The notes under the pieces were generated by a model. That model searched no databases, was not told the DNA's origin, and saw only the letters and a list, made by a program, of their open reading frames with translations. From an uncultured Thermotogae bacterium (GTDB lineage Bacteria > Bipolaricaulota > Bipolaricaulia > UBA7950 > UBA9294), in assembly GCA_964355545.1 (NCBI GenBank), contig CAYHEK010000002.1:1-47999 (forward strand): a stretch of 47,999 nucleotides of DNA, written 5' to 3'. The number at the start of each line of letters is the position of its first letter. Positions within the stretch are counted from its first letter, which is position 1. Of the stretch, positions 23,737 to 46,711 are shown one piece after another. A program made the translations under genes and the position numbers.

Positions 23737-23747
23737 TCCCCCACCTT

Positions 23748-29762: not shown

Positions 29763-30320
29763 ATGGAGGTCAAGGCGCGGATCGTCCTTACGGGACACCC
29801 GGGCGTGGGAAAGACGACGCTGATTGAGCGGGTTTTGGAACGGATCTCCCTCCGCGCCGGCGGGATGCTCACGCGGGAGATCCGCAAGTGCGGGTATCGG
29901 GTCGGGTTCTCGATTGTGGATCTATTGACCGGCGCGGAGGGGATTCTCGCCCACCTCCATGAGCGAAGCGGCCCGAAGTTCGGCCGCTACCGGGTCAACC
30001 TCGCCGACCTCGAAGGCGTGGGAATCCCCGCGATCCGCCGCGCGATCGCAGAGGCCGACCTCGTGGTGATCGACGAGATCGCCCCGATGGAGCTCGCCTC
30101 TTCCGCCTTCCTTCCGGCCGTCGAGGCGGCCCTCGCAAGCCCGAAGGCGCTCCTTGTCTCCACCCACGCCCACGTCGATCACCCCCTCGTCCATCGGATT
30201 CGCCAGGATCTCGATCTCTTCCGCGTCAAACTCTCCAATCGTGACGAACTGGTGGAGCAAATTGCCGAGCGGTTTGACCGGAGACCTGAAGGACAGGAGA
30301 TCCCGCCGCCGGCTCGTTGA
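29763..30320 (+). CDS. Nucleoside-triphosphatase, THEP1/NTPCR family
   Basis: LTGHPGVGKTT, TREIR...RVGF, GRYRV, VVIDEIAPMEL. Confidence 0.9.
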   Translation: MEVKARIVLTGHPGVGKTTLIERVLERISLRAGGMLTREIRKCGYRVGFSIVDLLTGAEGILAHLHERSGPKFGRYRVNLADLEGVGIPAIRRAIAEADLVVIDEIAPMELASSAFLPAVEAALASPKALLVSTHAHVDHPLVHRIRQDLDLFRVKLSNRDELVEQIAERFDRRPEGQEIPPPAR

Positions 30321-30345
30321 CGCTTGGGGAGGGCCGCGCTATAGT
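30317..30345 (+). promoter_or_regulatory. sigma70 promoter for the LKR-SDH pair
   Basis: TTGACG-17 nt-TATAGT. Confidence 0.75.
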
Positions 30346-30392: not shown

Positions 30393-31745
30393 ATGATCCA
30401 ATCCAAACGAATCGGGATCCGCCGGGAGGACATGTACCAATGGGAACGGCGCGTTCCGCTCGTTCCCCAAGACGCGCAGGAGCTTTCTCACAAGCATAGG
30501 ATTGAGGTATTCGTCGAGTCCTCGGCGAAGCGGATCTTCACGGAGGCGGAGTACCGGCGGGCGGGGATCAAGGTCGTGGAGAGCCTCACCGACTGCCCGA
30601 TCATCCTCGGGATCAAGGAGATCCCGATCCCAGTCCTTGAGGAAGGGAAGACCTACGTCTTCTTCTCCCACACGATCAAGGGACAGCCACACAACATGCC
30701 GATGCTCCGCCGCATTCTCGAGCTTCGCTCTACGCTCATCGACTACGAGAAGGTGACCGACGAGGACGGCCGGCGCCTGATCTTCTTCGGGAACTACGCG
30801 GGGCTTGCGGGAATGCTCGATACCCTGTGGGCGTTCGGCGAGCGCCTGGCCTGGGAGGGGATCGAAAATCCTTTCCAGGAGGTCGACCGCGCCATCGACT
30901 ACCCGGATCTCGACGCCGCGAAGGCCGCCCTACGCAAAGTGAGCGAGCGAATCGCGACGGAGGGATTGCCGCGGGCGATCGCTCCTCTCGTCGTCGGGTT
31001 TGCAGGCTACGGGAACGTCTCCCGAGGAGCACAGGAGATCCTCGATCTTCTGCCCGTGCGCGAGACGAGCCCCCAGGAGCTCCTCGCAGTGTCGAAGAAA
31101 AGGACGTCGGATCGCGTCGTGTACAAGGTCGTGTTCAAGGAAGAGGACATGGTGGAGCCGGTGGAGCCGGGGAAGGGATTTCTCCTTGAGGAGTACTACC
31201 GCCACCCCGAGCGCTACCGGGGCGTCTTCCGCCGCTACCTCCCTCACCTGGACATCCTCGTGAACGGCATCTACTGGGAACCGATCTACCCGCGCCTGGT
31301 CACCAAGGAGGAGGTGCGGAAAATGGTCAGGAAGGGGCGACCGCGACTGCGCGTGATCGGGGACATCAGTTGCGACGTCGAGGGAGCGATCGAGTGCACC
31401 GTGAAGGCGACGGAGCCGGATAACCCTGTCTACGTCTACGACCCGATCAAAGATCGGGTGACCGACGGGGTCGCTGGGGACGGGCCCGTGATCCTGGCGG
31501 TGGAGATCCTTCCGACGGAGCTCCCGCGCGAGGCCTCGACCTACTTCAGCGGCGTCCTCAAGGAGCACATCCCGCCTCTTGTCCAGGCGGACTTCGATGC
31601 AGACTTCGATCACTGCGAGCTCTCCTCCCCGCTCAAGCGGGCGGTGATCGCCTACCGGGGTGAACTGACGCCGAACTACCGCTACTTGGAGAAGTTCCTC
31701 GCGCAAAGCGGCGACGAGAGAAAGCCGAAAGGAGAAGACGCGTGA
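30393..31745 (+). CDS. Lysine-ketoglutarate reductase-like protein (AASS N-terminal half / Lys1 fold)
   Basis: RRED..WERRVPL, GIKE, FFSHTIKGQ..NM, IDYE, FG.YAG.AG, GNVSRGAQE, NGIYW, DISCD. Confidence 0.88.
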   Translation: MIQSKRIGIRREDMYQWERRVPLVPQDAQELSHKHRIEVFVESSAKRIFTEAEYRRAGIKVVESLTDCPIILGIKEIPIPVLEEGKTYVFFSHTIKGQPHNMPMLRRILELRSTLIDYEKVTDEDGRRLIFFGNYAGLAGMLDTLWAFGERLAWEGIENPFQEVDRAIDYPDLDAAKAALRKVSERIATEGLPRAIAPLVVGFAGYGNVSRGAQEILDLLPVRETSPQELLAVSKKRTSDRVVYKVVFKEEDMVEPVEPGKGFLLEEYYRHPERYRGVFRRYLPHLDILVNGIYWEPIYPRLVTKEEVRKMVRKGRPRLRVIGDISCDVEGAIECTVKATEPDNPVYVYDPIKDRVTDGVAGDGPVILAVEILPTELPREASTYFSGVLKEHIPPLVQADFDADFDHCELSSPLKRAVIAYRGELTPNYRYLEKFLAQSGDERKPKGEDA

Positions 31746-33070
31746 AGAAAGTGCTCGTCCTGGGGGCCGGCCTCGTCTCTGGACCGCTCATTCACTATCT
31801 CCTCGATCAGGAAGGGTTCGAGGTAAAGGTGGCGACCCGCACCCGGGAGAAGGCAGAGAGGCTCGTTGGGGGAAGGGCGAACGGGATCGCCGAACAAGTG
31901 GACGTGAACGATGAAAAGGCCCTGGAGAGATTGATCGCGGAGGCCGATCTCGCCATCAGCCTCCTCCCCTTCGTCTACCACCCCCTCGTCGCCCGGCTGT
32001 GCGTGAAGCATCGAAAGAGCATGGTGACCACGTCTTACGTGAAGGACGAGATGAAGGCGCTCGACTCCGAGGCGCGGGCGGCGGGGGTGATCCTCCTAAA
32101 CGAGATCGGCGTCGACCCCGGGATCGACCACATGTCGGCGATGGAGGTCATCGACCGGATTCGGGGAAGGGGAGGCGAGCTCGTCGGATTCTCGTCCTAC
32201 TGCGGAGGCCTGCCGGCTCCCGAGGCGAACACGAACCCGTTCGGATACAAGTTCTCCTGGAGTCCGCGCGGGGTGGTCCTCGCCGGGAAGAACCCGGCGC
32301 GCTACCTGGAGGACGGGAGGGTGGTGAGCGTCCCAGGGGAGGAGCTGTTTGCGCGTCATTGGCCCGTCCAGATCGAGGGATTCGGGACCCTCGAGGGGTA
32401 TCCGAATCGCGACTCCATTCCCTACCGGGAGACGTACGGGGTCTCGCAGGTCAAGACCATCTTCCGCGGGACGCTCCGCTATCTCGGTTGGTGCGAGACG
32501 CTCCGAGCGATCGCCCGCCTCGGGTTCCTGGACGAAACGGAGCGAAACGACCTCGCTGGCCTTAGGTGGTGCGACCTTACGGCGCGGCTCATCAGGAGCT
32601 CGGGGAAGACCATCAAGGAGGACCTCGGTCGGTTCCTCGGCCTCCGGGTGGATTCCCCTGTGGTGTCGAACCTGGAGTGGCTGGAGCTCCTGTCGGCCGA
32701 GCCCCTTCCCCGCGGGGCCCGCTCGTACCTCGATAGTCTCGTAGAGCAGATGCTCGAGAAGATGCGCTACGCGCCGGGAGAGCGCGACATGCTCGTCATG
32801 CAGCACGAGTTCACCGTCAAGTACCGAGATCGGCGCGAGCGGATCGTCTCGACCCTGATCGACTACGGGATCCCCCACGGCGACTCCTCCATGTCCCGCC
32901 TGGTCGGCCTTCCGGCGGCGATCGCAACCAAGCTGATCCTGAACGGGGAGGTAGACCTTGTCGGCGTGCACGTCCCGGTCCTTCCGGAGCTCTACTCGCC
33001 GGTCCTCACGGAACTCCGCGAGTTGGGGGTCGCCTTTCACGAGAAGGAGGAGGTTCTTCCCCCGGGTTGA
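31742..33070 (+). CDS. Saccharopine dehydrogenase, glutamate-forming (AASS C-terminal half / Lys9-like)
   Basis: LGAGLV, SLLP..H, TTSYV, EIGVDPGIDH, SYCGGLPAPE, YKFSWSPRG, YPNRDS, RGTLRY; GTGA overlap with the upstream gene. Confidence 0.92.
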   Translation: MKKVLVLGAGLVSGPLIHYLLDQEGFEVKVATRTREKAERLVGGRANGIAEQVDVNDEKALERLIAEADLAISLLPFVYHPLVARLCVKHRKSMVTTSYVKDEMKALDSEARAAGVILLNEIGVDPGIDHMSAMEVIDRIRGRGGELVGFSSYCGGLPAPEANTNPFGYKFSWSPRGVVLAGKNPARYLEDGRVVSVPGEELFARHWPVQIEGFGTLEGYPNRDSIPYRETYGVSQVKTIFRGTLRYLGWCETLRAIARLGFLDETERNDLAGLRWCDLTARLIRSSGKTIKEDLGRFLGLRVDSPVVSNLEWLELLSAEPLPRGARSYLDSLVEQMLEKMRYAPGERDMLVMQHEFTVKYRDRRERIVSTLIDYGIPHGDSSMSRLVGLPAAIATKLILNGEVDLVGVHVPVLPELYSPVLTELRELGVAFHEKEEVLPPG

Positions 33071-33141
33071 TCTCGGGGTAGGCGCGTATCGAGAAGGGGA
33101 TCACACCCTGTTCTATAAAGAGCTGTTGCTGAATTCGGTGC

Positions 33142-33171
33142 TTGGCGATGAGCTCAGTTAAGTTGTATATT
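33142..33171 (+). promoter_or_regulatory. Probable promoter of the gabT-amidase-liv-racemase operon
   Basis: TTGGCG-18 nt-TATATT in an AT-richer intergenic region. Confidence 0.45.
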
Positions 33172-33248
33172 GATTTATCCGGCTACGGAGTGGGCACGAG
33201 ACCAGAGGGGTGCGCGCCCGAGGCCCAACACGAGTCAGGAGGTACAGC

Positions 33249-34565
33249 ATGAGCGGTCGATCCATCTTGATCAAGACGGAGATCCCCGGCCCGAAATCGC
33301 GGGAGATCGCGAGTCGCAAGGAACGCTACGTCCCGAAGGCGTTCGACACGCTAGCACCGTTCTACATCGCAGAGGGAAAGGGCGCGCTGGTGAAGGACGT
33401 CGATGGAAACCAGTTCATCGACTTCACGGGCGGTTGGGGATGCCTGATCGTCGGCCACACGCAGGATCGCGTGGTCCGTGCGATCTGCGACCAAGCGGCG
33501 AAGTTCACCCACACGGACTTCACGGCGATCCCCTACGACCCCTTTGTGACACTCGCCGAGCGGCTCGCCAAGCGGGCCCCTGGCCCTTCCCCCAAGCAAG
33601 TCGCGTTCTTCAACTCCGGGGCCGAGGCGATCGAGAACGCGGTCAAGGTCTCTCGGAAGTACACCAAGCGTCGCGCGGTCATCGTCTTTGAGGGCGCGTT
33701 CCACGGCCGGACCCTCCTCACGATGACGATGACCCACAAGGCGACCCCGTACAAGGCGGGGTTTGGCCCGTTCGCGCCCGACGTCTACCGGCTCCCGTTC
33801 CCAAACCCGTACCGGAACAACCTCCGATTCGAGGACTGGGAGCGGCTCTTTTTCTCCCTTCTCGATCCCGAGGAGGCGGCGTGCGTCGTCGTCGAGCCTC
33901 TTCAAGGGGAGGGCGGGTTCATCGTCCCTGCGGATGGGTTCCTCGAGTACCTTCGGGAGTTCACGGCCAAGCATGGGATCCTGTTCGTCGTCGACGAGAT
34001 TCAGTGCGGGTACGGGCGGACGGGGAAGTTCTTTGCCATCGAGCACTACGGGGTGGAGCCGGACTTGATCGCGGTTGCGAAGTCGATCGCGATAGGCCTC
34101 CCGCTGTCGGCGGTGATCGGGAAGAAGACGATCTACGATGCGATCCCAGACAGCGCGATCGGAGGGACGTACGTCGGGAACCCCGTGGCCTGCCGTGCCG
34201 CAATCGAGGTCCTGAATGTCATCGACGAGGAGAAGCTCCTCGATCGCGCCGTCGCGATCGGGAAGATCACCCGCAGGCGCTTCGAAGAGATGAAGAAGAA
34301 GTACTCCCTGATCGGGGACATCCGCGGCCTGGGGGCGATGCTCGGGATCGAGCTCGTGGCGGATCCGGTCACGAAGACTCCGGCCAAGCACGAGTGCCAC
34401 GAGGTGGTGGTGGAGTGCCTGAAGAATGGCCTCGTCATGCCGAGCGCGGGACTGTACGGGAATGTCCTGCGGATGCTTGTCGCCCTCGCGATCACCGACG
34501 ATCAACTGAACGAGGGGCTGGACGTGCTGGACCGGGCGATCGGGAAGGTCGCCAAGAAGGGGTAG
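33249..34565 (+). CDS. gabT: Class III PLP aminotransferase, 4-aminobutyrate/5-aminovalerate type
   Basis: AGGAGGT SD and ATG 33249; NSGAEAIENAVK, FHGRT, EPLQGEGG, DEIQCGYGRTG, AKS, GGTYVGNP. Confidence 0.8.
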   Translation: MSGRSILIKTEIPGPKSREIASRKERYVPKAFDTLAPFYIAEGKGALVKDVDGNQFIDFTGGWGCLIVGHTQDRVVRAICDQAAKFTHTDFTAIPYDPFVTLAERLAKRAPGPSPKQVAFFNSGAEAIENAVKVSRKYTKRRAVIVFEGAFHGRTLLTMTMTHKATPYKAGFGPFAPDVYRLPFPNPYRNNLRFEDWERLFFSLLDPEEAACVVVEPLQGEGGFIVPADGFLEYLREFTAKHGILFVVDEIQCGYGRTGKFFAIEHYGVEPDLIAVAKSIAIGLPLSAVIGKKTIYDAIPDSAIGGTYVGNPVACRAAIEVLNVIDEEKLLDRAVAIGKITRRRFEEMKKKYSLIGDIRGLGAMLGIELVADPVTKTPAKHECHEVVVECLKNGLVMPSAGLYGNVLRMLVALAITDDQLNEGLDVLDRAIGKVAKKG

Positions 34566-34596
34566 GACGATCGACACGCGAAGAGGGAGACACGCG

Positions 34597-35499
34597 ATGC
34601 TACGGATCAAGAAAGAGAGGCGGACCTACTTCTACGACCCGCGCAACGAGCCGGCCGCATTCGCCTCCGTGGGGGACGTCGTCACCTTCGAGACGGTCGA
34701 CTGCTTCGACGACCAACTGAAGACGCCGCAGGACCTCGCGCACGCGCTCGACATGTCGCACACGAACCCCAACACCGGCCCGCTCTTCGTGAACGAGGCC
34801 GTGCCGGGGGACATCCTCTCGGTGAGGATCCTCGACATCGAACCGGAGGACCATGCCGTGGCGACCCTGATCCCCCGCGAGGGGGTCCTGCAGGACCGGG
34901 CCCCCGGCCCGGTGACGCGGATCTTTCGCATTAAGGATCGCATGACGATCTTCAACGACGACATCGTGATTCGGCCGCGGCTCATGGTCGGCACGATCGG
35001 GACGACCCCCCTCGCGCGATCTCCCACCGGCCTTCCCGGCGACCACGGGGGGAATATCGACGTCCCCACCGTGGGGATCGGGGCCTCCCTCTATCTTCCC
35101 GTGTTCGTCCCCGGAGCGCTTTTGCAGATGGGCGACGTGCACTCCGCGATGGGGGACGGCGAGATCTGCATCGGCATGGAGTGCGGGGCCGAGGTGACGG
35201 TCGAGATTCAAGGGCTCCTTAAGGACCGGTTCCTCGCGGGTCCGCTCGTGGAGACCGCGGAACGCTGGGGGATTATCGCCGACGCGCGTACCTTCGAGGA
35301 CGCAGTGCGGCTTGCCGTGCGGCGGACCGCCGGCTTCCTCACCCAGAAGCTCTCCCTCACGCTCGAAGACGCCGCGCTCCTGATCAGCACGGCGTGCGAC
35401 GTGAAGCTGGCCGAGTGGGCCGACGCGAACTACAACCTGGTCGTCTACGTCGAGGTCCCCAAGTACCTGGATAAGCGGGGACGACTCGAGTCGTTCTAA
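34597..35499 (+). CDS. Acetamidase/formamidase family amidase
   Basis: NPNTGP, HGGNID, GDVHSAMGDGE. Confidence 0.88.
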   Translation: MLRIKKERRTYFYDPRNEPAAFASVGDVVTFETVDCFDDQLKTPQDLAHALDMSHTNPNTGPLFVNEAVPGDILSVRILDIEPEDHAVATLIPREGVLQDRAPGPVTRIFRIKDRMTIFNDDIVIRPRLMVGTIGTTPLARSPTGLPGDHGGNIDVPTVGIGASLYLPVFVPGALLQMGDVHSAMGDGEICIGMECGAEVTVEIQGLLKDRFLAGPLVETAERWGIIADARTFEDAVRLAVRRTAGFLTQKLSLTLEDAALLISTACDVKLAEWADANYNLVVYVEVPKYLDKRGRLESF

Positions 35500-35604
35500 A
35501 GAGAAAGGAGGTGAGGGAAGGCATACAAGAGGAGGGCACGGGCCTTAGGTCACTTGTGCGGTCTGGCTTCTTCACGAGCGTTTCATCGAAGGAGGGTGAC
35601 GGTT

Positions 35605-36813
35605 GTGAACAGGTGGATGGTTGCGTTCTTGTGCGGGATTGCCCTTTTGGGAACCCTTGTGTTCCCCGCGATCGCTCAGGAGAAGACCCCGATCAAGCTT
35701 GGGGTCATCTTGGAGCTGACCGGATTCGGGGCGGAGATGGGGATCGAAGGCAAGCAGTGCGCGGAGGTCGCCGCGGCACTCAAGAACGATAGCGGCGGGG
35801 TTGCGGGGCACCCGATCGAACTCCGGATCATCGATGGTCAGAGCGACACGGTCGCGTTTCAGAGCGCGGCGGTGAGGCTCTCCGGAGAGGAGATCCTCGC
35901 TGCCCTCGGCGCGAACGATATCTCCTTCTCCCAGGCGGCCGGAGCGGAGTTCCAGAAGGCGGGGATCGTCTGGATCGACTGCGGCGGGACGACGCCGACC
36001 ATCCCCGAGATCGGCGACTACAATTTCATGATCCCCGTGCCGGATAACGATCAGGGGAGGGGCGTCGCGGCGTTTGTCTTCAAGAAGCTCGGCTACAACA
36101 CGGTCGCTATCTTCAAGGACATCGGAAGCGCCTACGGGACGGAGCTCACGAACTACTTCATCCAGTACTTCAAGGAGTTCACCGGGAAGGAGAACCCTGT
36201 CCCGCTTGTCCTGACCTACCAGGCGGGCGACGTCGACTACACGTCTCAGCTCACGAAACTCAGGGCCGATGCAGGGAAACTCGGGATCCAGGCGGTCATC
36301 CTTCCGACCTGGCCGCGCGACGCGCCGACGATCGCCCTCCAGGCGCGGGCGATGGGGATCAACCTTCCTCTGATCGGGACAGACGGGGTGGACACCACGG
36401 CCCTCACCGAGGTCGGGGGCACAGCGGTGGAGGGGATGGTCTACTCCACGCACTTCCACTATGAGAACGTCGCTACGGCTCAGGTGACCGAGTTCGTGGA
36501 CCGCTTCTTCCGCGTCTACGGCTTCCCGCCGGGCGCGTTCGGGACGATGGCGTTCGACGCGCTCTCGGTCATCATGGAGGCCCTGGAGAAGAACATCACG
36601 GAGATGGGAGACGCCGCGTGGAGCGCCCTCTCGCTCGCAGAGAAGCGGACCCTCCTCCGCGACACGCTTGCGACCGGGACCTTCACCTCTGCCACCCAGA
36701 CGATCCAGTTCAACTCGCTGCGTCAGCCGCAGCGCGGCTTGACGTGGGTGATCGTTCGGGACGGGGAGCGGCACTTCTACTACTTCCAGCCCTACGCGGA
36801 GTACGCAAAGTAG
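35605..36813 (+). CDS. ABC transporter substrate-binding protein, LivJ/LivK (HAAT) family
   Basis: AAGGAGG SD and GTG 35605; signal peptide (AIA-Q); IKLGVI..LTG, GGV.GHPIEL, DYTSQLTKL, GTDG. Confidence 0.88.
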   Translation: MNRWMVAFLCGIALLGTLVFPAIAQEKTPIKLGVILELTGFGAEMGIEGKQCAEVAAALKNDSGGVAGHPIELRIIDGQSDTVAFQSAAVRLSGEEILAALGANDISFSQAAGAEFQKAGIVWIDCGGTTPTIPEIGDYNFMIPVPDNDQGRGVAAFVFKKLGYNTVAIFKDIGSAYGTELTNYFIQYFKEFTGKENPVPLVLTYQAGDVDYTSQLTKLRADAGKLGIQAVILPTWPRDAPTIALQARAMGINLPLIGTDGVDTTALTEVGGTAVEGMVYSTHFHYENVATAQVTEFVDRFFRVYGFPPGAFGTMAFDALSVIMEALEKNITEMGDAAWSALSLAEKRTLLRDTLATGTFTSATQTIQFNSLRQPQRGLTWVIVRDGERHFYYFQPYAEYAK

Positions 36814-36829
36814 GGAGATTCGCTAGCCC

Positions 36830-36861
36830 GGGGAAGCCCCTCACGGGGCTTCCCCTCTTTG
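36830..36861 (+). terminator. Intercistronic hairpin after the binding-protein gene
   Basis: Perfect 11-bp stem GGGGAAGCCCC-TCAC-GGGGCTTCCCC followed by TCTTTG. Confidence 0.7.
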
Positions 36862-36891
36862 TGGTCCTCGTGACGTGAGCAAGGAGAGGCT

Positions 36892-37677
36892 ATGGGCGGA
36901 CCTGACGTGCTCTTGGAGGTCTCTGGCCTGGGAAAGACGTTCGGCGGACTCGTCGCCGTCTCCAACTTCGAGGCCCAGGTCCCGCGGGCCCAGATCATAG
37001 GCCTGATCGGGCCGAACGGCGCCGGCAAAACCACGGTCTTCAACCTGATCAGCGGGGTCCTGAAACCGACCTCCGGGAGGGTCCGATTTGGAGGGCGGGA
37101 CATCACGGGCCATCCGCCGGACCGGATCTGTCGCTGCGGAGTCGCGCGCACGTATCAAAAGATTCGCCTCTTCCACAACCTAAGCGTCCTGGACAACGTC
37201 CGTTATTCGCTCGTCAAGACGGCGCGCTACAACCTCATGGACACGCTGATCGGATCGCCTCGGTATCGAAGGGAGGAGCGGCGGATGGGGGAGCATGCGG
37301 AGCGGATGCTCGACACGCTGGGGATCCTTTCTCTGCGGGACGCGATCGCCTCGGACCTCGCCTACGGCCAGCAGCGCCGGGTGAGCATCGCGCGGGCGCT
37401 CGCCCTAGAGCCGACCCTCCTCCTCCTCGACGAGCCGACCGCCGGCCTGAACACGCAGGAGGCGGGCGAAATCGCCCGTCTCATCTCCCGTCTGCGCGAC
37501 GAACTCCACCTGACGATCATCCTCGTCGAGCACAACATGCGGGTCATCATGGCGATCTGCGAGGACATCATCGTGCTCGATAAGGGTGAGACGATCTGCC
37601 GCGGGACGCCGGAGAAGGTGCAGCAGGATCCGAGGGTGATCGAGGCCTACCTGGGGGTGGCGACCGATGCCAACTGA
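36892..37677 (+). CDS. livG: HAAT ABC transporter ATP-binding protein
   Basis: GPNGAGKTT, LAYGQQR, LLLDEP, VEH, DPRVIEAYLG. Confidence 0.9.
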   Translation: MGGPDVLLEVSGLGKTFGGLVAVSNFEAQVPRAQIIGLIGPNGAGKTTVFNLISGVLKPTSGRVRFGGRDITGHPPDRICRCGVARTYQKIRLFHNLSVLDNVRYSLVKTARYNLMDTLIGSPRYRREERRMGEHAERMLDTLGILSLRDAIASDLAYGQQRRVSIARALALEPTLLLLDEPTAGLNTQEAGEIARLISRLRDELHLTIILVEHNMRVIMAICEDIIVLDKGETICRGTPEKVQQDPRVIEAYLGVATDAN

Positions 37678-38392
37678 CACGATGGCCCTCCGCCTGCAGG
37701 ACGTGCACGCCGGCTACGGGAAGATGGAAGTCCTCCTCGGGATCGATCTTCTCGTTGGTGACGGCGAGATCGTCGCCCTGGTTGGATCGAACGGAGCGGG
37801 GAAGACGACGACTCTCCGCACGATCGTCGGGCAAGTGAAGGCGCGGGCGGGAACGGTCGAGTTCCTGGGCGAGGACATCTCTCGCGAACCGCCGTACGCC
37901 CTGACGCGTAAGGGAATCGCCATGAGCCCGGAAGGCCGTGCAGTTCTAGGAAACCTCTCTGTCTTCGAGAACCTGCGGCTCGGCGCGTACACGGTCAAGG
38001 ACTCGGTGCGGTTCAAGAAGGAGCTTGAGCGCGTGTACGCGCTTTTCCCTCGGCTCAAGGAGCGCGAGCGGCAGAGCGGCGGGTCCTTGAGCGGCGGGGA
38101 GCAGCAGATGCTCGCCGTCGGACGGGCGCTGATGAGCTCGCCCCGGCTTCTTCTCCTGGACGAGCCGTCATTGGGAATCGCGCCGAACTTGGCGCGGACC
38201 ATCTTCGCCACCTTCCAAGAGATCCGCGAGGAGGGGAGTTCGATCTTGATCGTGGAGCAGAATGTCTCCCTCTCCCTGCGGGCCTCGGACCGGGCGTACG
38301 TCATGGAGCGGGGGCAGATCCCCCTCGAGGGGGAGTCCAAGGCGCTGCTTGAGAATCCGCACGTCAAGGCCGCCTACCTGGGGGTCGCCTAA
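37667..38392 (+). CDS. livF: HAAT ABC transporter ATP-binding protein
   Basis: GSNGAGKTT, FPRL.ER, LSGGEQQM, LDEPSLG, VEQN. Confidence 0.9.
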   Translation: MPTDTMALRLQDVHAGYGKMEVLLGIDLLVGDGEIVALVGSNGAGKTTTLRTIVGQVKARAGTVEFLGEDISREPPYALTRKGIAMSPEGRAVLGNLSVFENLRLGAYTVKDSVRFKKELERVYALFPRLKERERQSGGSLSGGEQQMLAVGRALMSSPRLLLLDEPSLGIAPNLARTIFATFQEIREEGSSILIVEQNVSLSLRASDRAYVMERGQIPLEGESKALLENPHVKAAYLGVA

Positions 38393-38403
38393 GGGGAGAT
38401 CGC

Positions 38404-39297
38404 ATGTCCTTTCAATACGTTGTGCAGCAGATCCTGAACGCGCTTGCCTGGGGAAGCATGCTCGGCCTCATGGCCGTCGGATACACCCTCCTCTACGGCG
38501 TACTCGGGCTCGTGAACTTCGCTCAGGGCGAGATCTTCATGGTGGGAGCCTTCTCGGCGTATCTCGCGATGGCCTTGGGGAACGCCCCGTTCTGGGTCGG
38601 TCTCCTCGCGGCCGTGGGGGGGGCCGTGATCGCGGGCGTCATCCTCGAGCGGGTGGCGTTCCGCCCCGTACGCAAGGCGGGAGGGATTACGCTGTTCATC
38701 ACGTCCCTCGCCGTCTCGATCGCCATCAAGAACCTCTACATCATGGGTCTCACGAACAAGATTCGCCCGTTCAAGACGCCGGCCTTCCTCCGCACCGTGC
38801 ACGACTGGCACGGGCTCCTGATCTACAACAACACGATGGCGATCGTGGCAGTGACCTTAGTCATCACGGTCGCTCTTCTTCTCTTCATCAAGCGAACGAA
38901 GACCGGAATCGCCATGCGTGCCGTTGCCTACGACCGCGAGACCGCGGAGCTGATGGGGGTGAACACGAACCGGGTCATCGTCATCGCGTTCATCATCGCC
39001 TCGGCCCTGGCCGCGATCGCCGGGGTGTTCTGGGGGGTGAAGTTCGGTTCCGTCCAGCCTACGATGGGCTACATCCCGGTGATTAGCGCGTTCATCGCCG
39101 CGGTCCTCGGCGGGGTGGGGAACATCGCCGGCGCCATGGTCGGCGGGTTCATCATCGGGATTGGAGAGATCCTGTTTGTTGGGTTCCTGCCTTCGGAGCT
39201 GATCGGACTGCGGCCGGTCTTTGTCTGGGCGGTGCTGTTCGTTCTTCTCCTGTTCAAGCCGTCGGGTCTCTTTCCGGCGAACATCAAGCCCTCGTAG
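38404..39297 (+). CDS. livH: HAAT ABC transporter permease
   Basis: A.GYTL.YG...VNFAQGE, G.AMRAVA.D, AAVLGG.G. Confidence 0.9.
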   Translation: MSFQYVVQQILNALAWGSMLGLMAVGYTLLYGVLGLVNFAQGEIFMVGAFSAYLAMALGNAPFWVGLLAAVGGAVIAGVILERVAFRPVRKAGGITLFITSLAVSIAIKNLYIMGLTNKIRPFKTPAFLRTVHDWHGLLIYNNTMAIVAVTLVITVALLLFIKRTKTGIAMRAVAYDRETAELMGVNTNRVIVIAFIIASALAAIAGVFWGVKFGSVQPTMGYIPVISAFIAAVLGGVGNIAGAMVGGFIIGIGEILFVGFLPSELIGLRPVFVWAVLFVLLLFKPSGLFPANIKPS

Positions 39298-39311
39298 AGG
39301 AGGAAGAGAAC

Positions 39312-40367
39312 GTGAAAACGCTGCGTCGGATCCTCAGTCCCATCGCCGGACTCGGGCTTCTCGTCCTCCTCCTCTTCGGCGTGGATCGCCTCTTTCCGCC
39401 CTACTACCACCACCTCTTCGTCCTGTTCGGGATCAACATCATCCTCACTGTGTCCCTCAACATCACGAACGGCTTCACCGGGCTCTTCTCCCTTGGGCAC
39501 GGGGGGCTGATGCTCGCTGCGGGGTACGCCTCTGCCTACCTCACCATGCCGGTCTGGTGGAAGGCGGCGCACCTCTCCCTTCCAAGCTGGCTCACCAACG
39601 CCCACTGGCCGTTCTTCCTGGCCCTGATCGTGGGGGGGCTCGTCGCGACCCTCTTTGGCTTCGTCCTCACGGCGCCGTCCTTCCGCCTGAAGGGCCACTA
39701 CTTCATGCTGATGACGCTGGGATTTAACATCATCATGGTCTCCGTCGGCGAGAACCTGATCGCGTTCACAAACGGCGCAAAGGGGATGTGCCCGATCCCG
39801 ACGTATACGAACCTGTGGTGGGTGTTCGGGATCGTCGCGTTTCTCGTGTACTTTGTGCTGCGTCTCAAGCGTTCGAAGCTCGGCCGGGCGATGATCGCGG
39901 TGGGAAAGGACCAGACCCTCGCCGAGACGATGGGAATCAGCGCCTCGCGGGCGAAGATGGCGGCGTTCGCCATCTCAAGCTTCTTCACGGGCGTCGGCGG
40001 GGTGCTCCTCGTGCACGTCATCGGGAACCTCTTCCCGACCCACTTCGGCCTAGACATCGTTTTTGACGTGGTCATGATGTTGATCATCGGCGGGATGGGG
40101 AGCGTTACCGGATCGATCCTCGGCGCGGCGATCGTGACGGGATTCGTCGAGCTCCTCTCCCCGATTCAGGAGGGGTTCACTCTCTTCGGGTTTGCGTTCC
40201 CGCGCATGTTCGGCCTCGTCCAGCTTCTGTTCGCGGTCGCCCTCATCCTGATCCTCGTCTTCCGGCCCTACGGGATCATGGGCGAGCGAGAGCTCTCCCT
40301 CCGGTCACTGGGGAACGCGGCTCGGTTCGTCGGCCGGCTGATCCGGCCTCGCCGTTCTGCCGCGTAG
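39312..40367 (+). CDS. livM: HAAT ABC transporter permease
   Basis: GFTGLFSLGH, RLKGHYF..TLGF, IIGGMGS..G, FRPYGIMG. Confidence 0.9.
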   Translation: MKTLRRILSPIAGLGLLVLLLFGVDRLFPPYYHHLFVLFGINIILTVSLNITNGFTGLFSLGHGGLMLAAGYASAYLTMPVWWKAAHLSLPSWLTNAHWPFFLALIVGGLVATLFGFVLTAPSFRLKGHYFMLMTLGFNIIMVSVGENLIAFTNGAKGMCPIPTYTNLWWVFGIVAFLVYFVLRLKRSKLGRAMIAVGKDQTLAETMGISASRAKMAAFAISSFFTGVGGVLLVHVIGNLFPTHFGLDIVFDVVMMLIIGGMGSVTGSILGAAIVTGFVELLSPIQEGFTLFGFAFPRMFGLVQLLFAVALILILVFRPYGIMGERELSLRSLGNAARFVGRLIRPRRSAA

Positions 40368-40385
40368 GGGCCGGAGGGGGACTTC

Positions 40386-41711
40386 GTGTTGAACTCTGCG
40401 GAGAAGGGCTACCTCGAGCGGGATCGCTCCCTCCTCGCCGAGGCGATGAAGATCCGGTTCTTCCCGATCGTGCTCGAGTCGAGCCGAGGCTCGCGCATCC
40501 GCGACATCGAGGGCCGGGAGTACCTCGACTTCAGCGGGAGCTGGGCCGTCGCCGGCACCGGGTACGGCCACCCGCGGGTGGTGGAGGCGGTGACGAACCA
40601 GGTTCGAAAGGCCTCGACCAACTCCCCGATCTCCATCCCCTGCCCGCAGACGATCGACCTTGCCGAGCGCCTCGTCGCTCTTTTCCCAGGACACTTTGCG
40701 AAGAAGGTCTGGTTCGGACACTCGGGCTCCGAGGCCGCAGACCTCATCGCGAAGTTCCTTCCCATTGCGAAGAAAAGGCCGAGGATCCTCACCTTCGCCG
40801 GGAGCTACCACGGACAGACCCTGGGAGCGGCGTCCCTCTCAGGCCACACTGCCTCCGCGGCCTTCTCCGGAAGCGCGTCGGTGACCAAGGTTCCCTACCC
40901 ACACCCCTATCGGTTCGCGGGGGACGCACAGGCCTGCTGCGAGGAGCACCTGGGCACGATCCGGCGGCTCCTCGAGCGATCGGCCGCGGAGTACGCCGGG
41001 CTGCTTGTCGAGCCGGTGATGAGCGACGGCGGGGTGATCGTCCCTCCCGAGGGGTTCCTCGCCGGCCTCGCGGTCCTGTGCCGCGAGTACGACCTCTACT
41101 TCGTCGTCGACGAGGTAAAGACGGGGTTCGGCCGGACGGGAAGGATGTTCGCCTTCGAGCACGAGGGGGTCGTCCCCGACGCCGTGATGCTCGGGAAGCC
41201 AATCGCGTCTGGGATCCCGCTGAGCGCCGTCGTGGGGAGGGCGGAGATCCTGGACGCGGTCCCAAGCGGCCACATGATGACGACGGCGGGGAACCCGATC
41301 GCCTGCGCGGCGGGCCTGGCGACCCTGGACGTGATTCTGGAAGAACGCCTTCCCGAGAGGGCGGCGAGGTTGGGGGAGACCTTGCTTGAGGCGCTGCGGG
41401 ACCTCGCGGCGGAGCATCCGGCTATCGGGGACGTGCGCGGGAAGGGGCTCATGATCGGAGTCGAGCTCGTCCGACCCGAGTCAAGGGAGCCGGACCCCGA
41501 GCTTACGCGCAGGCTCTGCTACCGCGCCAAGGAGCTTGGGCTCATCGTCTTCTACGTGGGGACGCACTCGAACGTCATCGAGCTCACCCCTCCGCTCGTC
41601 CTCACGGAAGCAGAGCTTCGCGAGGGGGTCGCCCTCTTCTCCCAGGCCCTCGCGGACGCCGTCGCGGGCAAGGTCTCCGCGGACGACCTCGTCGGCTACG
41701 CCGGTTGGTAG
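40386..41711 (+). CDS. Fold-type I PLP racemase, alpha-amino-epsilon-caprolactam (amino acid amide) racemase-like; class III aminotransferase family
   Basis: K.RFFP N-terminus, SGSW, WFGHSGS, EP..SDGG (Asp), DEVK (Lys instead of Gln), NVIELTPP (Glu instead of Arg), C-terminal YAGW. Confidence 0.8.
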   Translation: MLNSAEKGYLERDRSLLAEAMKIRFFPIVLESSRGSRIRDIEGREYLDFSGSWAVAGTGYGHPRVVEAVTNQVRKASTNSPISIPCPQTIDLAERLVALFPGHFAKKVWFGHSGSEAADLIAKFLPIAKKRPRILTFAGSYHGQTLGAASLSGHTASAAFSGSASVTKVPYPHPYRFAGDAQACCEEHLGTIRRLLERSAAEYAGLLVEPVMSDGGVIVPPEGFLAGLAVLCREYDLYFVVDEVKTGFGRTGRMFAFEHEGVVPDAVMLGKPIASGIPLSAVVGRAEILDAVPSGHMMTTAGNPIACAAGLATLDVILEERLPERAARLGETLLEALRDLAAEHPAIGDVRGKGLMIGVELVRPESREPDPELTRRLCYRAKELGLIVFYVGTHSNVIELTPPLVLTEAELREGVALFSQALADAVAGKVSADDLVGYAGW

Positions 41712-41722
41712 GTCCCGGGTCC

Positions 41723-42505
41723 CTACCCCGCGAGCCCACCTCCATCCACCACGAGGGCTGTGCCTGTGATGAAGGAGGAGGAATCACTTGCGAGGAAGAG
41801 GACCGCCTGGGCGACCTCTTCGGGGGTTCCCATTCTCCCCAGGGGGCGATCGGCCGACTCGGCGAGGAACTCCTCGATCGGGATCCCCAGCTCGGAGGCC
41901 TCGTGGCGGAGCATGGCCGTGTCCGTGTCTCCGGGGCAGACGCAGTTCACGCGGATCCCTTGCCGGCCGTGGTCGATTGCCATCGCCTTCGTGAGGAGGA
42001 CGACCGCGCCCTTCGAGGCGCAGTAGACGGCCGCGTCGCGTCCGCCCGCGATTCCCCAGCCGGAGGCCGTGTTGACGATCGCGCCCCCGCCGGCCTTGGC
42101 CATGATCGGGATGACGAGCCGCGAGAGGAGGAAGATCGATTTCAGGTTCGTCGCCATGACCCGGTCCCACTCCTCTTCGCTCGTCCCGAGCACCGAGGCA
42201 CGACGGATGATCCCGGCGTTATTGAACAGGATGTTGAGTCCTCCCCACGCGGCGACCGTCGCCGCGACCGCGCTCTCGCAGTCGCGCGCAGAGGTGACAT
42301 CTGCGGCGAGGAAGAGGGCGCGGCCGCCTGCCTCTTCGATCTCCTCGACCACCGCGCGGCCTTCAGCCTCGTTTCGGTCCATCACCGCTACCCGCGCCCC
42401 CTCCTCGGCGAAGAGGAGGGCCGTCGCCCGTCCGATCCCCGCCGCTGCGCCCGTGATCAGGGCGACCTTCCCCTCGAGCGCCCTGCACTTCGCTCGTTCC
42501 TTCAC
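41723..42505 (-). CDS. Short-chain dehydrogenase/reductase (classical SDR, probably NAD-preferring)
   Basis: TGAAAGIG, acidic residue in VMDR, NNAG, YCASK, CPGDTDT. Confidence 0.92.
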   Translation of the reverse strand: MKERAKCRALEGKVALITGAAAGIGRATALLFAEEGARVAVMDRNEAEGRAVVEEIEEAGGRALFLAADVTSARDCESAVAATVAAWGGLNILFNNAGIIRRASVLGTSEEEWDRVMATNLKSIFLLSRLVIPIMAKAGGGAIVNTASGWGIAGGRDAAVYCASKGAVVLLTKAMAIDHGRQGIRVNCVCPGDTDTAMLRHEASELGIPIEEFLAESADRPLGRMGTPEEVAQAVLFLASDSSSFITGTALVVDGGGLAG

Positions 42506-42539
42506 ACGCCACCTCCTTGATCGACCTTGACGAATCCGC

Positions 42540-43694
42540 CTACTCGCCCTCGCTCGAGACCCGGTAGATGACCCCTTCCCTGTACCCGGTCACGACCGGG
42601 ACGTAGCCCGAGAGCTCCCGGTCAAGGTCTGGATCCCCGGTGTCGACGAGGAAGGGACGCCCTCGCAGCGCCGCGATCTTCGTCGGGGTTGCGACGACGA
42701 CGAGGTTCTCCTTGCCCACCCTGCGGATCACCTCCGGGCTGAGCGGCTGGTTCCCCCGGCCGAAGAGGTATCCTTGCCCACCGATCGGGGTGACGAGGAT
42801 CTTCGCCGGAAGCCCTCCTTGGAGGAAATTGAGGAGCCGCGCTTCGCTCGCGTCGGCCGCGACGAGGCGCCCCCCGCGCACGGCGTCGACGCCGAGGAGC
42901 GTCTTCTCAAGACCCATACGCTCCAGGATCGCGCGCGTCGTCGTCCCGGGCCCGACGAGGTAGAGGGTCCCCTCCTCCGTTCGGGCGAGGACCTCACCCG
43001 CGATCGCCTCCATGGACGCAGCTTCGCCGACGGCGCTCGGCATTTTCGCAGTCTGCAAAAGGCGCGGCTCCGCCGGGACGCGGAGGTAACCGTAGAGCCG
43101 CGTCGAGACGACTCCGCGACGGAGCTTCTCCTCGTCGACGTCCATCACCTCGGCCTCGCGCAAGCGAGGGACGCGACCGCGGAGGTAGGACAGGGCGAGG
43201 TCTCCCGCGCAGCGCGGGCTCACGGCGAAGACGGCGGAGTGCATCTTGACCCCGGCGGGGATCCCGAGCACAGGAAGTCTCTCTCCGATCGCGTCGAAGA
43301 TGTCGCGCGCCGTGCCGTCCCCACCGGCGAAGAGAAGGAGAGAGACCCTGCGGCGCTCCATCTCCTCTGCCGCCCTTTTTGTGTCCTCGGCGGTCGTCCG
43401 CCCTTCCCGGATCGTACCCACGACCGTCGGGACGAACCCGCTCCGCCTCGCCGCCTCCTCGCCCATCTCGCTTGGGTAGGTCAAAAGCTCCATCTCGCTT
43501 CGGATCGCAAGGAGTGCCTCTAGGGCTTGACGAGCGCGTTCGCCCGCCTGGGGGTCTGCCCCCAACTCGCGAGCCCTCCTCTGGACGAGCGTGCCGTCGC
43601 TCCCTTTGAGGGCGACCCTCCCCCCAAGGCCGGCCACGGGGTTGACGACGAGGCCGAGCCTTCTCTTTTCTGACTGCCTCGCGCGTTCGTCCAT
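42540..43694 (-). CDS. ATP-NAD kinase / AcoX-like family protein
   Basis: VNPVAGLGG...LKGSDG, AGGDGTARD, GIPAGVKMHS, GPGTT, GGQGYLFGRGNQ, VDTGD. Confidence 0.85.
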   Translation of the reverse strand: MDERARQSEKRRLGLVVNPVAGLGGRVALKGSDGTLVQRRARELGADPQAGERARQALEALLAIRSEMELLTYPSEMGEEAARRSGFVPTVVGTIREGRTTAEDTKRAAEEMERRRVSLLLFAGGDGTARDIFDAIGERLPVLGIPAGVKMHSAVFAVSPRCAGDLALSYLRGRVPRLREAEVMDVDEEKLRRGVVSTRLYGYLRVPAEPRLLQTAKMPSAVGEAASMEAIAGEVLARTEEGTLYLVGPGTTTRAILERMGLEKTLLGVDAVRGGRLVAADASEARLLNFLQGGLPAKILVTPIGGQGYLFGRGNQPLSPEVIRRVGKENLVVVATPTKIAALRGRPFLVDTGDPDLDRELSGYVPVVTGYREGVIYRVSSEGE

Positions 43695-43699
43695 CGGCG

Positions 43700-45283
43700 C
43701 TAGCGGATCGGCCGCTCGAACTTCCTCTTGTACGCCCTCCAGGTGATCGCCCAGCGAGAGGGGTCGTCGAACGGAGCCGGATCGATCCTGTGGACCGTGC
43801 TGTGGTGGGGGGCGTTCTTCACGACTTCAGGGTCGGAGCGGGCCTCCTCCGCCACGTGGCGCAGGATCGCCGCGTACTCGTCGAGGTCGCCCTTCGAGAA
43901 CGACTCGGTCGGCTCGAGCGTGCACGGCTCGGGGACGACCCACGGGTGGTGGCTCGTCCAGTAGTGGACCCCGAAGTCGGCGGCGCGCAGCCCCACGTCC
44001 TCGGAGTGGACCCCCGTCTCGTTCGTCAACCCCGAAAGGCTATAGCGGACCTGCTCGAGGCGTCGCGTCCCCGGCGCGTAGGGGGCGCTCCACCCGGGGA
44101 TCGAGAGGACCTTCTTCTCGAGGTAGTTGTTGTTGAGGACCGCCGTCTCGGCGACCTTCCTCAGGCCGTCTGCGCCGAGGCCCATCACCCACGCGTAGGC
44201 CTTGACGACCGCGGGGACGACCCCGTAGAAGGATCGCACCTTCCCGATCGAGCGCGGCCGGTCGTAGTCGAAGCGATACCTCGTCCCGTCGAACTCGACG
44301 AGAGGGGCGGGAAGAAAGGGCGCGAGCGCCTCGGTTACACCCACGGCGCCGACCGCCGGCCCGCCGCACCCGTGGGGGGTGGAGAAGGTCTTGTGCAGGT
44401 TGAAGTGGACGAGGTCGAAGCCGGCGTCCCGGGCGCGGGTGATCCCGAGGAGCCCGTTCGCGTTCGCCTGGTCGTAGGACGAGAGGCCGCCCGCGTCGTG
44501 GACGAGCCGCACGAACTCCTCGATCTTGGGGTTAAAGATCCCCGTGTCCTCGGGGTTCGTGATCATGAGCCCCGCCGTCCGCTCGGAGAGGGCCCTCTTC
44601 AGGGCCTCGACCTCGGGGTAACCCCGCGGCCCCGGGTAGAGGGTGATCACCTTGAACCCGGCCGTCTTCGCGCAGGCGGCGTCGGAGGGGTGGGAGAAGA
44701 TCGTCGTGATCATCTCGTCGCGCTGCTCTCCCTGTCCGCGTTCTTCATGGTAGGCGCGGATGAGGGAGGCGTTCGTGTAAATCGCGGCGGAGCCGGCCCC
44801 CGGCTGAAGGGAGAACCGATCCATCCCCGAGATCTCCTTGAGGATCCCCTCAAAGCGGTAGAGGATCTCGAGGATCCCTTGGACTGTCTCCTCGGCCTGG
44901 AGGGGATGGATCTCCGTGACCTGCTCGAGGCGCGCGAGCTCCTCGTTCACCTTGGGGCTGTACTTCATCGTGCAGGTTCCCTGGCCGACGTCGACGTTTA
45001 GATCGAGGCCGAGGGTCTCCTGCGAGAGCCGCATGTAGTGGCGCACGACCTGGGGCTGGGAGATCTCGGGGAGGGCCGGCGGCCTCTCGCGTCGCATCCC
45101 CTGCGGAAGTGTTGCCAGGACGTCTCCGACCTCCATCCGCATCGCTTTCTCGACCGGCGGGACGAGGAGGCCGCGCTCGCCCGGGTGGCCGAGTTCGAAG
45201 ACGATCGGCTCGTCCCACTTCGCCTGGTGAAAGCGGCGCAGCCGCGGCTCCTTCTGCGACCGCTCCGTCTTCTTCGTCTTCAT
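43700..45283 (-). CDS. gcvPB: Glycine-decarboxylase P-protein subunit 2-like (divergent paralog)
   Basis: RHY.RLSQ, CTMKY.P, TNP..GIF, PLP-lysine motif NLHKTFSTPHG.GGP, EPTE; several canonical motifs are altered. Confidence 0.85.
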   Translation of the reverse strand: MKTKKTERSQKEPRLRRFHQAKWDEPIVFELGHPGERGLLVPPVEKAMRMEVGDVLATLPQGMRRERPPALPEISQPQVVRHYMRLSQETLGLDLNVDVGQGTCTMKYSPKVNEELARLEQVTEIHPLQAEETVQGILEILYRFEGILKEISGMDRFSLQPGAGSAAIYTNASLIRAYHEERGQGEQRDEMITTIFSHPSDAACAKTAGFKVITLYPGPRGYPEVEALKRALSERTAGLMITNPEDTGIFNPKIEEFVRLVHDAGGLSSYDQANANGLLGITRARDAGFDLVHFNLHKTFSTPHGCGGPAVGAVGVTEALAPFLPAPLVEFDGTRYRFDYDRPRSIGKVRSFYGVVPAVVKAYAWVMGLGADGLRKVAETAVLNNNYLEKKVLSIPGWSAPYAPGTRRLEQVRYSLSGLTNETGVHSEDVGLRAADFGVHYWTSHHPWVVPEPCTLEPTESFSKGDLDEYAAILRHVAEEARSDPEVVKNAPHHSTVHRIDPAPFDDPSRWAITWRAYKRKFERPIR

Positions 45284-45284
45284 C

Positions 45285-46679: not shown

Positions 46680-46711
46680 CGTGCGTCCCTCCCTCCTTGT
46701 CTTTGGAAACC

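Follow-up and report, generated by a model that had tools for sequence, protein, structure and literature searches.

Does the gene at 40386-41711 (+) encode a transaminase, as automatic annotation would have it, or a racemase, and what would such an enzyme do at the end of the gene run that it closes? The gene lies on contig CAYHEK010000002.1, of which we analysed a stretch of 47,999 nucleotides (hereafter the window). A first-pass annotation had proposed an enzyme resembling the racemase of alpha-amino-epsilon-caprolactam (ACLR), working with an amidase and a Liv-type transporter just downstream of lysine-catabolic genes. Our results give strong support for placing the predicted product in the ACLR/amino acid amide racemase family and not among the transaminases, on the basis of its residues, its best structural matches and its place in a tree. 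As to the run as a whole, we lean slightly towards a predicted catabolic module for uptake, racemisation and amide or lactam hydrolysis, with the ACLR-family racemase as its last gene.

The protein (441 residues; GTG start, with a GGAGG ribosome-binding site 8 nucleotides upstream) has the class-III aminotransferase fold (PF00202, 337.7 bits) among the pyridoxal 5'-phosphate (PLP)-dependent enzymes of fold type I. All the motifs that had been listed for it were present in this very gene: SGSW at residue 50, WFGHSGS at 109, SDGG at 213, DEVK at 242, VIELTPP at 397 and AGW at 439-441. An alignment to the ACLR of Achromobacter obae (2ZUK), which had been suggested as a check, extended over residues 7-441 with 371 bits, and the motifs were common to both proteins (SGAW, WFGHSGS, QSDGG, DEVKVG, VLEFTPP and FAGW in 2ZUK). 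The PLP lysine is K271, aligned with the LGK lysine of 2ZUK. Among solved structures, the ACLR of Rhizobium freirei (5M46) also scored 371 bits, followed by the Ochrobactrum anthropi racemase of amino acid amides (6GIO, 363 bits), the Pyrococcus broad-specificity racemase (BAR, 336 bits) and alanine/serine racemase (ASR, 320 bits), GabT (274 bits) and isoleucine 2-epimerase (269 bits). The expectation that automatic annotation would give a GABA transaminase agrees with the names of public relatives: JGI calls them '4-aminobutyrate aminotransferase' and NCBI 'aspartate aminotransferase family protein'.

The residues were compared in 80 family rows, namely 78 loci, the window gene and one gene from an O. 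anthropi plasmid, without L069 and L077, whose match was shorter than 400 residues. Asp214, Lys245, Lys271 and Glu399 were invariant (80/80), whereas the GabT-like class-III aminotransferase of the same cluster, AT3a, has Glu, Gln, Lys and Arg in these columns. The C-terminal Trp was present in 76 of the rows, Tyr141 in 78 and Trp53 in 73; AT3a has Phe in the Tyr141 column and Trp in the Trp53 column. The racemase ends in YAGW, on an extension that AT3a does not have, and AT3a has no C-terminal Trp. Moreover, Lys at the DEVK position was shared by all 121 aligned sequences, the query and its 120 best matches. AT3a itself keeps the transaminase-type residues that had been reported for it (QGEGG, DEIQ and, in addition, NVLRM), without the C-terminal extension.

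Not all of the listed motifs are diagnostic, however. The SGSW Trp is not discriminating because the AT3a column is also Trp, and Asp214 marks racemases of this fold generally, not ACLR alone, because it is shared with free-amino-acid racemases. Indeed, the catalytic Asp is essential in isoleucine 2-epimerase and in the Pyrococcus alanine/serine racemase, according to the available part of PMC6047364. In printed alignments, ASR (9WQZ) keeps the catalytic Asp but has DEVQ and NVIRITPPL, and 6GIO has SDGG, DEVK, NVLEFMPPL and the C-terminal Trp; Glu at the Arg position was also found in 2ZUK, 5M46 and 6GIO. Since ASR keeps Gln and Arg, Lys245 and Glu399 separate the amide/lactam racemases from at least one free-amino-acid racemase. 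In class-III/GabT-type transaminases, this Arg binds the alpha-carboxylate of the substrate; Glu399 would thus fit a substrate without a free carboxylate. The Asp of SDGG, the second base, and the Lys of DEVK presumably correspond to Asp210 and Lys241 in the numbering of the A. obae enzyme, and Payoungkiattikun and colleagues reportedly searched for ACLRs by Lys241 in 2015. Nothing on the residues of the family stands in the reviews PMC11732141 and PMC6955911.

The protein search gave 6678 proteins at E ≤0.001 among 8000 scored candidates, and the best 120 were aligned. Among these, 13 were 59-98% identical to the window racemase, all of them metagenomic, and the matches then reached a plateau near 50% identity in Bacillota, haloarchaea and Chloroflexota. 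A genome search with two family-specific peptide patterns in 185,579 species genomes yielded 470 stretches, of which 453 were confirmed and the best 80 studied. The closest of these 80 loci were two near-identical Candidatus Bipolaricaulota contigs (L070 and L071; racemase 70% identical), which count as one lineage for that reason. In a quick IQ-TREE tree rooted on AT3a, the window racemase grouped with the two Bipolaricaulota genes (SH-like approximate likelihood ratio test, SH-aLRT, 99), and this trio was sister to five haloarchaeal genes (SH-aLRT 100). The gene of the O. anthropi plasmid pOANT01, an ACLR ortholog with 823 bits to 2ZUK, fell inside this family too, in a different part of it.

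From 30393 to 41711, every gene lies on the + strand, as judged from open reading frames (ORFs) and Pfam/NCBIfam matches. A lysine-ketoglutarate reductase (LKR)-like gene with AlaDh_PNT domains in Pfam (30393-31745) is overlapped at its stop by 4 nucleotides by the start of a saccharopine dehydrogenase/reductase (SDH) gene (31742-33070; Sacchrp_dh_C, 274 bits). After a gap of 140 nucleotides come AT3a (33210-34565; 396.8 bits in Pfam), whose ORF holds, in frame, position 33249 at which the first-pass annotation had begun the cluster, and the gene of a 300-residue FmdA_AmdA amidase (34597-35499; PF03069, 92.6 bits, cut-off 27). They are followed by a Peripla_BP_6 binding protein (35554-36813; Pfam and NCBIfam), ATPases of the LivG type (36892-37677; NF008449, 275 bits, with a BCA_ABC_TP_C domain) and LivF type (37667-38392; NF008626, 246.7 bits), and permeases of the LivH type (38404-39297; BPD_transp_2, 153.7 bits; NF008011) and LivM type (39312-40367; BPD_transp_2, 123.9 bits). 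The racemase gene thus ends a run that does hold, as had been claimed, an acetamidase-family amidase and a full hydrophobic amino acid uptake transporter (HAAT), all on the same strand. From AT3a to the racemase, the intergenic gaps are 32, 55, 79, -11, 11, 14 and 18 nucleotides. Promoter-like sites were found before LKR (30317-30345) and before AT3a (33142-33171) in a sigma-70 consensus scan, which suggests that LKR/SDH form one unit and AT3a to racemase another; sigma-70 and terminator consensus scans carry little weight in this organism. Terminator-like sites were not above chance (6 observed against 7.9 expected from shuffles). Directly 3' of the binding-protein gene, on the + strand, a G+C-rich hairpin of 11 pairs, 9 of them G-C, with a T-rich tail after it (36830-36855) may be an attenuator or a stabiliser.

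The Liv-type importer is complete, with its binding protein, two ATPases and two permeases. The binding protein likely starts at a Met near 35617, followed by a signal peptide ending AIA/QE, and its best solved matches are the branched-chain amino acid binders 3TD9 and 4GNR. The best solved matches of the amidase are the uncharacterised 'acetamidases' 2II1 (188 bits) and 3TKK; it fails the NCBIfam formamidase equivalog (63 of 500), and its homologs at ≥46% identity form about 30 clusters, all metagenomic. We propose the amidase as an amide or lactam hydrolase. The O. anthropi L-amidase LamA is, we assume, also a member of FmdA_AmdA. Lactam activity within this family is stated in the part of a preprint available to us (bioRxiv 10.1101/2024.02.22.581678). 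For AT3a, the best solved match is GabT 4ATP (389 bits), and the protein stays below every NCBIfam cut-off; neither the racemase, the amidase nor AT3a reached the cut-off of any NCBIfam equivalog. It may be added that the amidase ORF is 255 residues long in L070 (8747-9514) and 338 in the near-identical L071 (8746-9762), so that a frameshift or an assembly error may have shortened the former.

To examine the setting of the racemase family, we took the ORFs up to 8 kb from the racemase gene in the window and in the 80 loci (n = 81) and clustered them with BLAST. An amide-bond hydrolase of some kind was present in 64/81 and a transporter in 58/81; 54/81 had the two together. The transport genes were APC amino acid permeases (29/81, with a second type in 10/81), ABC ATPases (28/81), LivH (20/81), LivM (17/81) and binding proteins (17/81), and the hydrolases included Amidohydro_2 (32/81), M20 peptidases (17/81 and 13/81), cyclase-family (10/81), isochorismatase-like (9/81) and FmdA_AmdA proteins (8/81). 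A PuuA-like glutamine-synthetase (GS) homolog was a neighbour in 47/81 loci, a class-III aminotransferase paralog in 18/81, sigma-54 activators in 16/81, DUF6885 in 14/81, Orn/Lys/Arg-decarboxylase-like genes in 9/81 and gamma-glutamyltranspeptidase in 7/81. On the racemase tree, Liv permease genes within 8 kb occurred in 20/79 rows with 8 changes and FmdA_AmdA in 8/79 rows with at least 5 changes; these links are therefore not a single inherited accident. The order binding protein-LivG-F-H-M-racemase is common to the window, Chloroflexota and Arenicellales, and amidase, Liv genes and racemase occur together in four loci (L060, L061, L064 and L073). The linkage of the racemase to Liv-type transporters and amide hydrolases thus recurs across phyla.

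Conservation of this arrangement in other genomes, which had been set as a test, was borne out in part. In L070/L071, AT3a (82% identical), amidase (80-81%) and racemase (70%) stand side by side, with the amidase directly upstream of the racemase, but the Liv and LKR/SDH genes are not there within 10 kb. The longest metagenomic contigs were identical in length for the racemase, amidase and binding-protein homologs (10027 and 10672 bases), for racemase and amidase (12088 bases) and for racemase and binding protein (20221 and 35716 bases). Since these contig sizes are equal, the homologs appear to lie on the same contigs, which points to an arrangement with Liv genes in related organisms as well.

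Taken together, these genes suggest the following scheme. The Liv-type ABC system would import an alpha-amino compound with a masked carboxyl group, either an amino acid amide or the lactam of lysine or ornithine, and in the cytoplasm the racemase would interconvert its D and L forms. A stereoselective FmdA-family metallo-amidase could then open the amide or lactam bond and draw the whole pool to one free amino acid, with release of ammonia if the substrate is an amide. The GabT-like aminotransferase, which is conserved beside the amidase, might take the amino group off the product. Least securely, the adjoining LKR/SDH could carry lysine to aminoadipate semialdehyde in this genome. The scheme of uptake, racemisation and hydrolysis put forward in the first-pass annotation is supported in its family assignment and in the recurrent linkage to transporters and hydrolases, but not in all its parts, as Liv genes are not in L070/L071 and the GS partner of 47/81 loci is not in the window.

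The lysine link deserves particular caution. Both genes are real and lie upstream in the window: the best solved match of the LKR-like protein is the LKR domain of human AASS (246 bits), and the SDH protein matches saccharopine reductase 1E5L (341 bits). However, LKR or SDH was found by tblastn in 0/80 related loci, and a promoter-like site lies between LKR/SDH and the run. As L070/L071 are without LKR/SDH (the genes upstream of the cluster there are an ATP synthase and a methyltransferase), the link is real in the window but not conserved, and the membership of LKR/SDH in the module is doubtful. Other hints at basic amino acid products, besides the LKR/SDH genes that adjoin the run, are an ornithine-cyclodeaminase-family gene in L070, recurring ArgE/DapE-type M20 peptidases, the PuuA-like ligase and Ord/OrtB/OraE in L005. 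These hints, taken from annotation-level names, would fit lysine or ornithine lactams as substrates.

Several points weigh against the catabolic-module reading. The closest relatives, L070/L071, have no Liv genes and no LKR/SDH within 10 kb. In 12/81 loci there is no partner at all; five of these are contigs under 8 kb, and L047, L058, L065, L067 and L068 (four Actinomycetota and one Bathyarchaeota) are full-length. The neighbour labels come from one Pfam/NCBIfam-named representative per BLAST cluster, with simple ORF calling. The amidase, none of whose close relatives is characterised, is only 31-34% identical to other racemase-linked FmdA genes. The binding protein most resembles Leu/Ile/Val binders, and its identity to other racemase-linked ones is 27-29%. 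As for the enzyme family, the Lys and Glu columns were compared in a single free-amino-acid racemase, ASR; BAR, ASR and isoleucine 2-epimerase stand outside the tree and are separated from ACLR by bit scores only (371 against 336, 320 and 269). Finally, three common partners of the family, the GS homolog (47/81), Amidohydro_2 (32/81) and M20 (17 + 13), are not near the window racemase, so the usual pathway of the family may differ from that of the window.

This last point bears on an alternative that we consider unlikely, though it survives best: the window would be part of a longer gamma-glutamylation pathway, in which a PuuA-like ligase tags an amine and hydrolases process it, with those genes elsewhere in the genome. 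The substrate would then be another amine, with the amidase and AT3a working at later steps. The GS-like neighbour is indeed PuuA-like (495 bits, cut-off 650), and the ACLR ortholog itself stands in such a setting: on pOANT01, genes for an RpiR regulator, an isochorismatase-like hydrolase, a GS-family protein and an N-formylglutamate-amidohydrolase-like protein precede it, and a Liv-type transporter is divergent from the cluster. Plasmids of Klebsiella and Maritalea have the same gene set, joined by either an APC permease or a Liv system. Against this alternative, the ORFs scanned across the 48-kb window included no GS-like, Amidohydro_2 or isochorismatase-like gene, L070/L071 have none within 10 kb of the racemase, and the sole M20 peptidase found in the window (19175-20341) lies about 20 kb from the racemase. 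Nevertheless, since 47/81 loci, the ACLR ortholog included, pair the racemase with a PuuA-like GS, the scheme of transporter, racemase and amidase may be incomplete, and the missing partner makes the window a reduced or alternative version of a larger, uncharacterised system.

Some observations on these neighbourhoods may be recorded here. Members of this racemase family, at about 40% identity, are present in 44 Klebsiella plasmid records. In the one region examined, from a Klebsiella pneumoniae plasmid (L082), insertion sequences flank a block that unites the racemase with genes for an APC permease, RpiR and GS-family, isochorismatase-like and N-formylglutamate-amidohydrolase proteins. About 8 kb away, there are an ABC ATPase gene and a gene of the FmdA family. 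The PuuA-like GS homolog is often paired with Amidohydro_2 (for example L017 7185-9706 and L081 6816-8150), two domains that are fused in fungal FluG. In archaeal loci of the Nitrososphaerota type (L035, L039, L040, L043, L050 and L076), the racemase is flanked in fixed order by genes for DUF6885, two families without Pfam match (about 270 and 319 residues), a GS-like protein, the second permease type and gamma-glutamyltranspeptidase.

Slightly less probable again, in our view, is a racemase of free amino acids, like Pyrococcus BAR/ASR or the Lactobacillus isoleucine 2-epimerase, that would serve D-branched-chain amino acids imported by the Liv system, with the amidase unrelated. The transporter and the binding protein are of the Leu/Ile/Val type, the BAR and ASR scores are not far under that of ACLR, and the catalytic Asp is common to these racemases in the part of PMC6047364 available. 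Yet ASR has Gln and Arg where the window protein and all 80 family rows have Lys and Glu, and the window protein stays far below the cut-offs of the NCBIfam racemase models for Leu/Met (295 of 800) and Ala/Ser (335 of 639). Moreover, amide hydrolases recur beside the family.

A chance juxtaposition is a little less likely still. Here, the FmdA amidase and the HAAT system would form an uptake unit for short-chain amides or urea, for which Methylophilus FmdA with FmdDEF is a precedent, and the racemase-like gene would have a separate function. Amide and urea porters do occur among HAAT systems, the urea transporter models UrtD/E/B give 148-219 bits with LivG/F/H, and L070/L071 have no Liv genes between amidase and racemase. 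However, the binding protein reaches only 20-25 bits on urea-binder models, and no AmiC structure was found among its solved-structure matches. The racemase gene, with its ribosome-binding site, starts 18 nucleotides after LivM, its adjacency to Liv genes recurs across phyla, and that of amidase and racemase persists without Liv. As for an ordinary omega-aminotransferase, a second GabT, which the class-III fold and the public names would favour, it is very improbable, as the transaminase Glu/Gln/Arg triad is replaced by Asp/Lys/Glu and the protein is below every GabT cut-off in NCBIfam and closest to solved racemases.

Returning to the catabolic-module reading, it is possible, although rather doubtful at this stage, that ACLR-type racemases stand at the centre of a widespread, as yet undescribed system by which natural alpha-amino lactams or amides are broken down, ornithine and lysine lactams foremost among them. 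In such a system, an APC or Liv transporter would import the substrate, the racemase would equilibrate its enantiomers, and unrelated hydrolases (FmdA_AmdA, isochorismatase-like, cyclase-family, Amidohydro_2 or M20 proteins) would be candidates for ring opening. The product might leave through OraE/Ord/OrtB D-ornithine fermentation in Clostridia, LKR/SDH in the window and PuuA-like gamma-glutamylation elsewhere. In the Clostridial locus L005 (7884-19305), the racemase gene has an APC permease on one side and a cyclase-family hydrolase on the other; a decarboxylase-like gene comes next, and then Ord, OrtB and OraE (NCBIfam scores of 503, 838 and 1373 for cut-offs of 400, 550 and 800). This cluster runs into D-ornithine fermentation genes, suggesting that the racemase pathway there supplies ornithine. 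Ord/OrtB (DAPDH, PALP) clusters were found in five loci, all Bacillota (L005, L007, L008, L015 and L038). If this wider proposal is true, the 'unnatural' industrial substrate would be close to the real one of the enzyme.

The conserved setting of transporter, unrelated amide-hydrolase families and amino acid catabolic genes gives this racemase family a testable physiological role and points to natural amide or lactam nutrients. It also offers co-evolved racemase/amidase pairs and candidate bacterial lysine or ornithine lactamases. The Asp/Lys/Glu signature, for its part, tells racemases from transaminases and corrects a systematic mis-annotation as 'GABA aminotransferase'.

Beyond the run, the window holds other genes. 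At 41723-47836 (-), convergent to the racemase, lie genes for a short-chain dehydrogenase/reductase (SDR), an NAD-kinase-like protein (384 residues), GcvPB, GcvPA and a class I/II aminotransferase (VioD/GntC-like); GcvT and GcvH are not in this stretch. The same set without the aminotransferase follows the racemase cluster in the Anaerolineae locus L017 (11561-16495), on the same strand and with 58-74% identity, and it also flanks the racemase in L070/L071 (11380-19092), with an ornithine-cyclodeaminase-family gene added. A Y-family (DinB-like) polymerase ORF of 517 residues (28023-29576, -) has its IMS domain from residue 137, and so has either an N-terminal extension or a start called too early. 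An ORF of 1262 residues (20392-25526, -) fuses 2Fe-2S, pyridine-nucleotide-disulphide oxidoreductase, Fe-S and molybdopterin domains and looks like an electron-bifurcating dehydrogenase module; its overlap of about 430 nucleotides with a Nuo51-like flavoprotein ORF suggests that its start codon was called too far upstream. An aldehyde:ferredoxin oxidoreductase gene (5884-8046, +) fits an anaerobic, amino acid-fermenting host.

How does the window compare with known systems? In the literature searched, from which subscription journals were mostly absent, we found no description of a natural gene cluster for ACLR-type racemases and no paper naming four of the five neighbour genes together; by title and abstract, the caprolactam racemase appears there as a biocatalyst only. 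ACLR (EC 5.1.1.15; 2ZUK/3DXV of A. obae, 5M46 of R. freirei) resembles the window racemase over its full length at 371 bits, and the two share Trp, Tyr, Asp, the Lys of DEVK, the PLP lysine, the Glu of V-x-E-x-TPP and the C-terminal GW. The window racemase is about 42% identical to the pOANT01 ortholog and belongs to a different subclade, with Bipolaricaulota and haloarchaea; instead of the RpiR, isochorismatase-like, GS-like and N-formylglutamate-amidohydrolase genes of that ortholog, the window carries genes for an FmdA amidase and a GabT-like protein. The amino acid amide racemase of O. anthropi (6GIO, 363 bits) is likewise similar in SDGG, DEVK, Glu at the Arg position and the C-terminal Trp, but it is known as a biocatalyst. 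The free-amino-acid racemases ASR (9WQZ) and BAR (9WRF) of Pyrococcus horikoshii and the Lactobacillus buchneri isoleucine 2-epimerase (5WYA) agree with the window racemase in the class-III fold and in the catalytic Asp. ASR differs in keeping Gln and Arg; where it is aligned to L054, a member of the family, the match stops before the C-terminal GW of the family.

For the tie of amidase and transporter to amino acid amides, there is a precedent in the MeAmi operons. The part of the preprint available (bioRxiv 10.1101/2024.02.22.581678) describes 610 ABC operons with an SBP_bac_5 binding protein and an FmdA_AmdA amidase, of which a representative binding protein binds L-amino acid amides and not the free acids. 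Like the window, these operons unite an ABC importer with an FmdA_AmdA amidase, with a proposed uptake and hydrolysis of amino acid amides. They have an AmiC/ANTAR regulator pair, and no racemase is mentioned in that part of the preprint. The window instead has a Peripla_BP_6/Liv system with an added racemase and aminotransferase, and the ORFs scanned from 25908 to 47836 included no regulator gene of the ANTAR or Peripla_BP_5 type. In view of this binding protein and of the regulators not found, the window would work like the MeAmi system without being a member of it. The same two-enzyme logic, in which an amide or lactam is racemised and one enantiomer hydrolysed, underlies two industrial processes: the 'amidase process', combining ACLR with stereoselective amidases (in the accessible text of PMC7431475), and the conversion of DL-aminocaprolactam to L-lysine by a racemase and a lactam hydrolase (in that of PMC6061476). 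These processes combine by hand enzymes of different organisms, whereas the window has both genes, and a transporter, in one genome.

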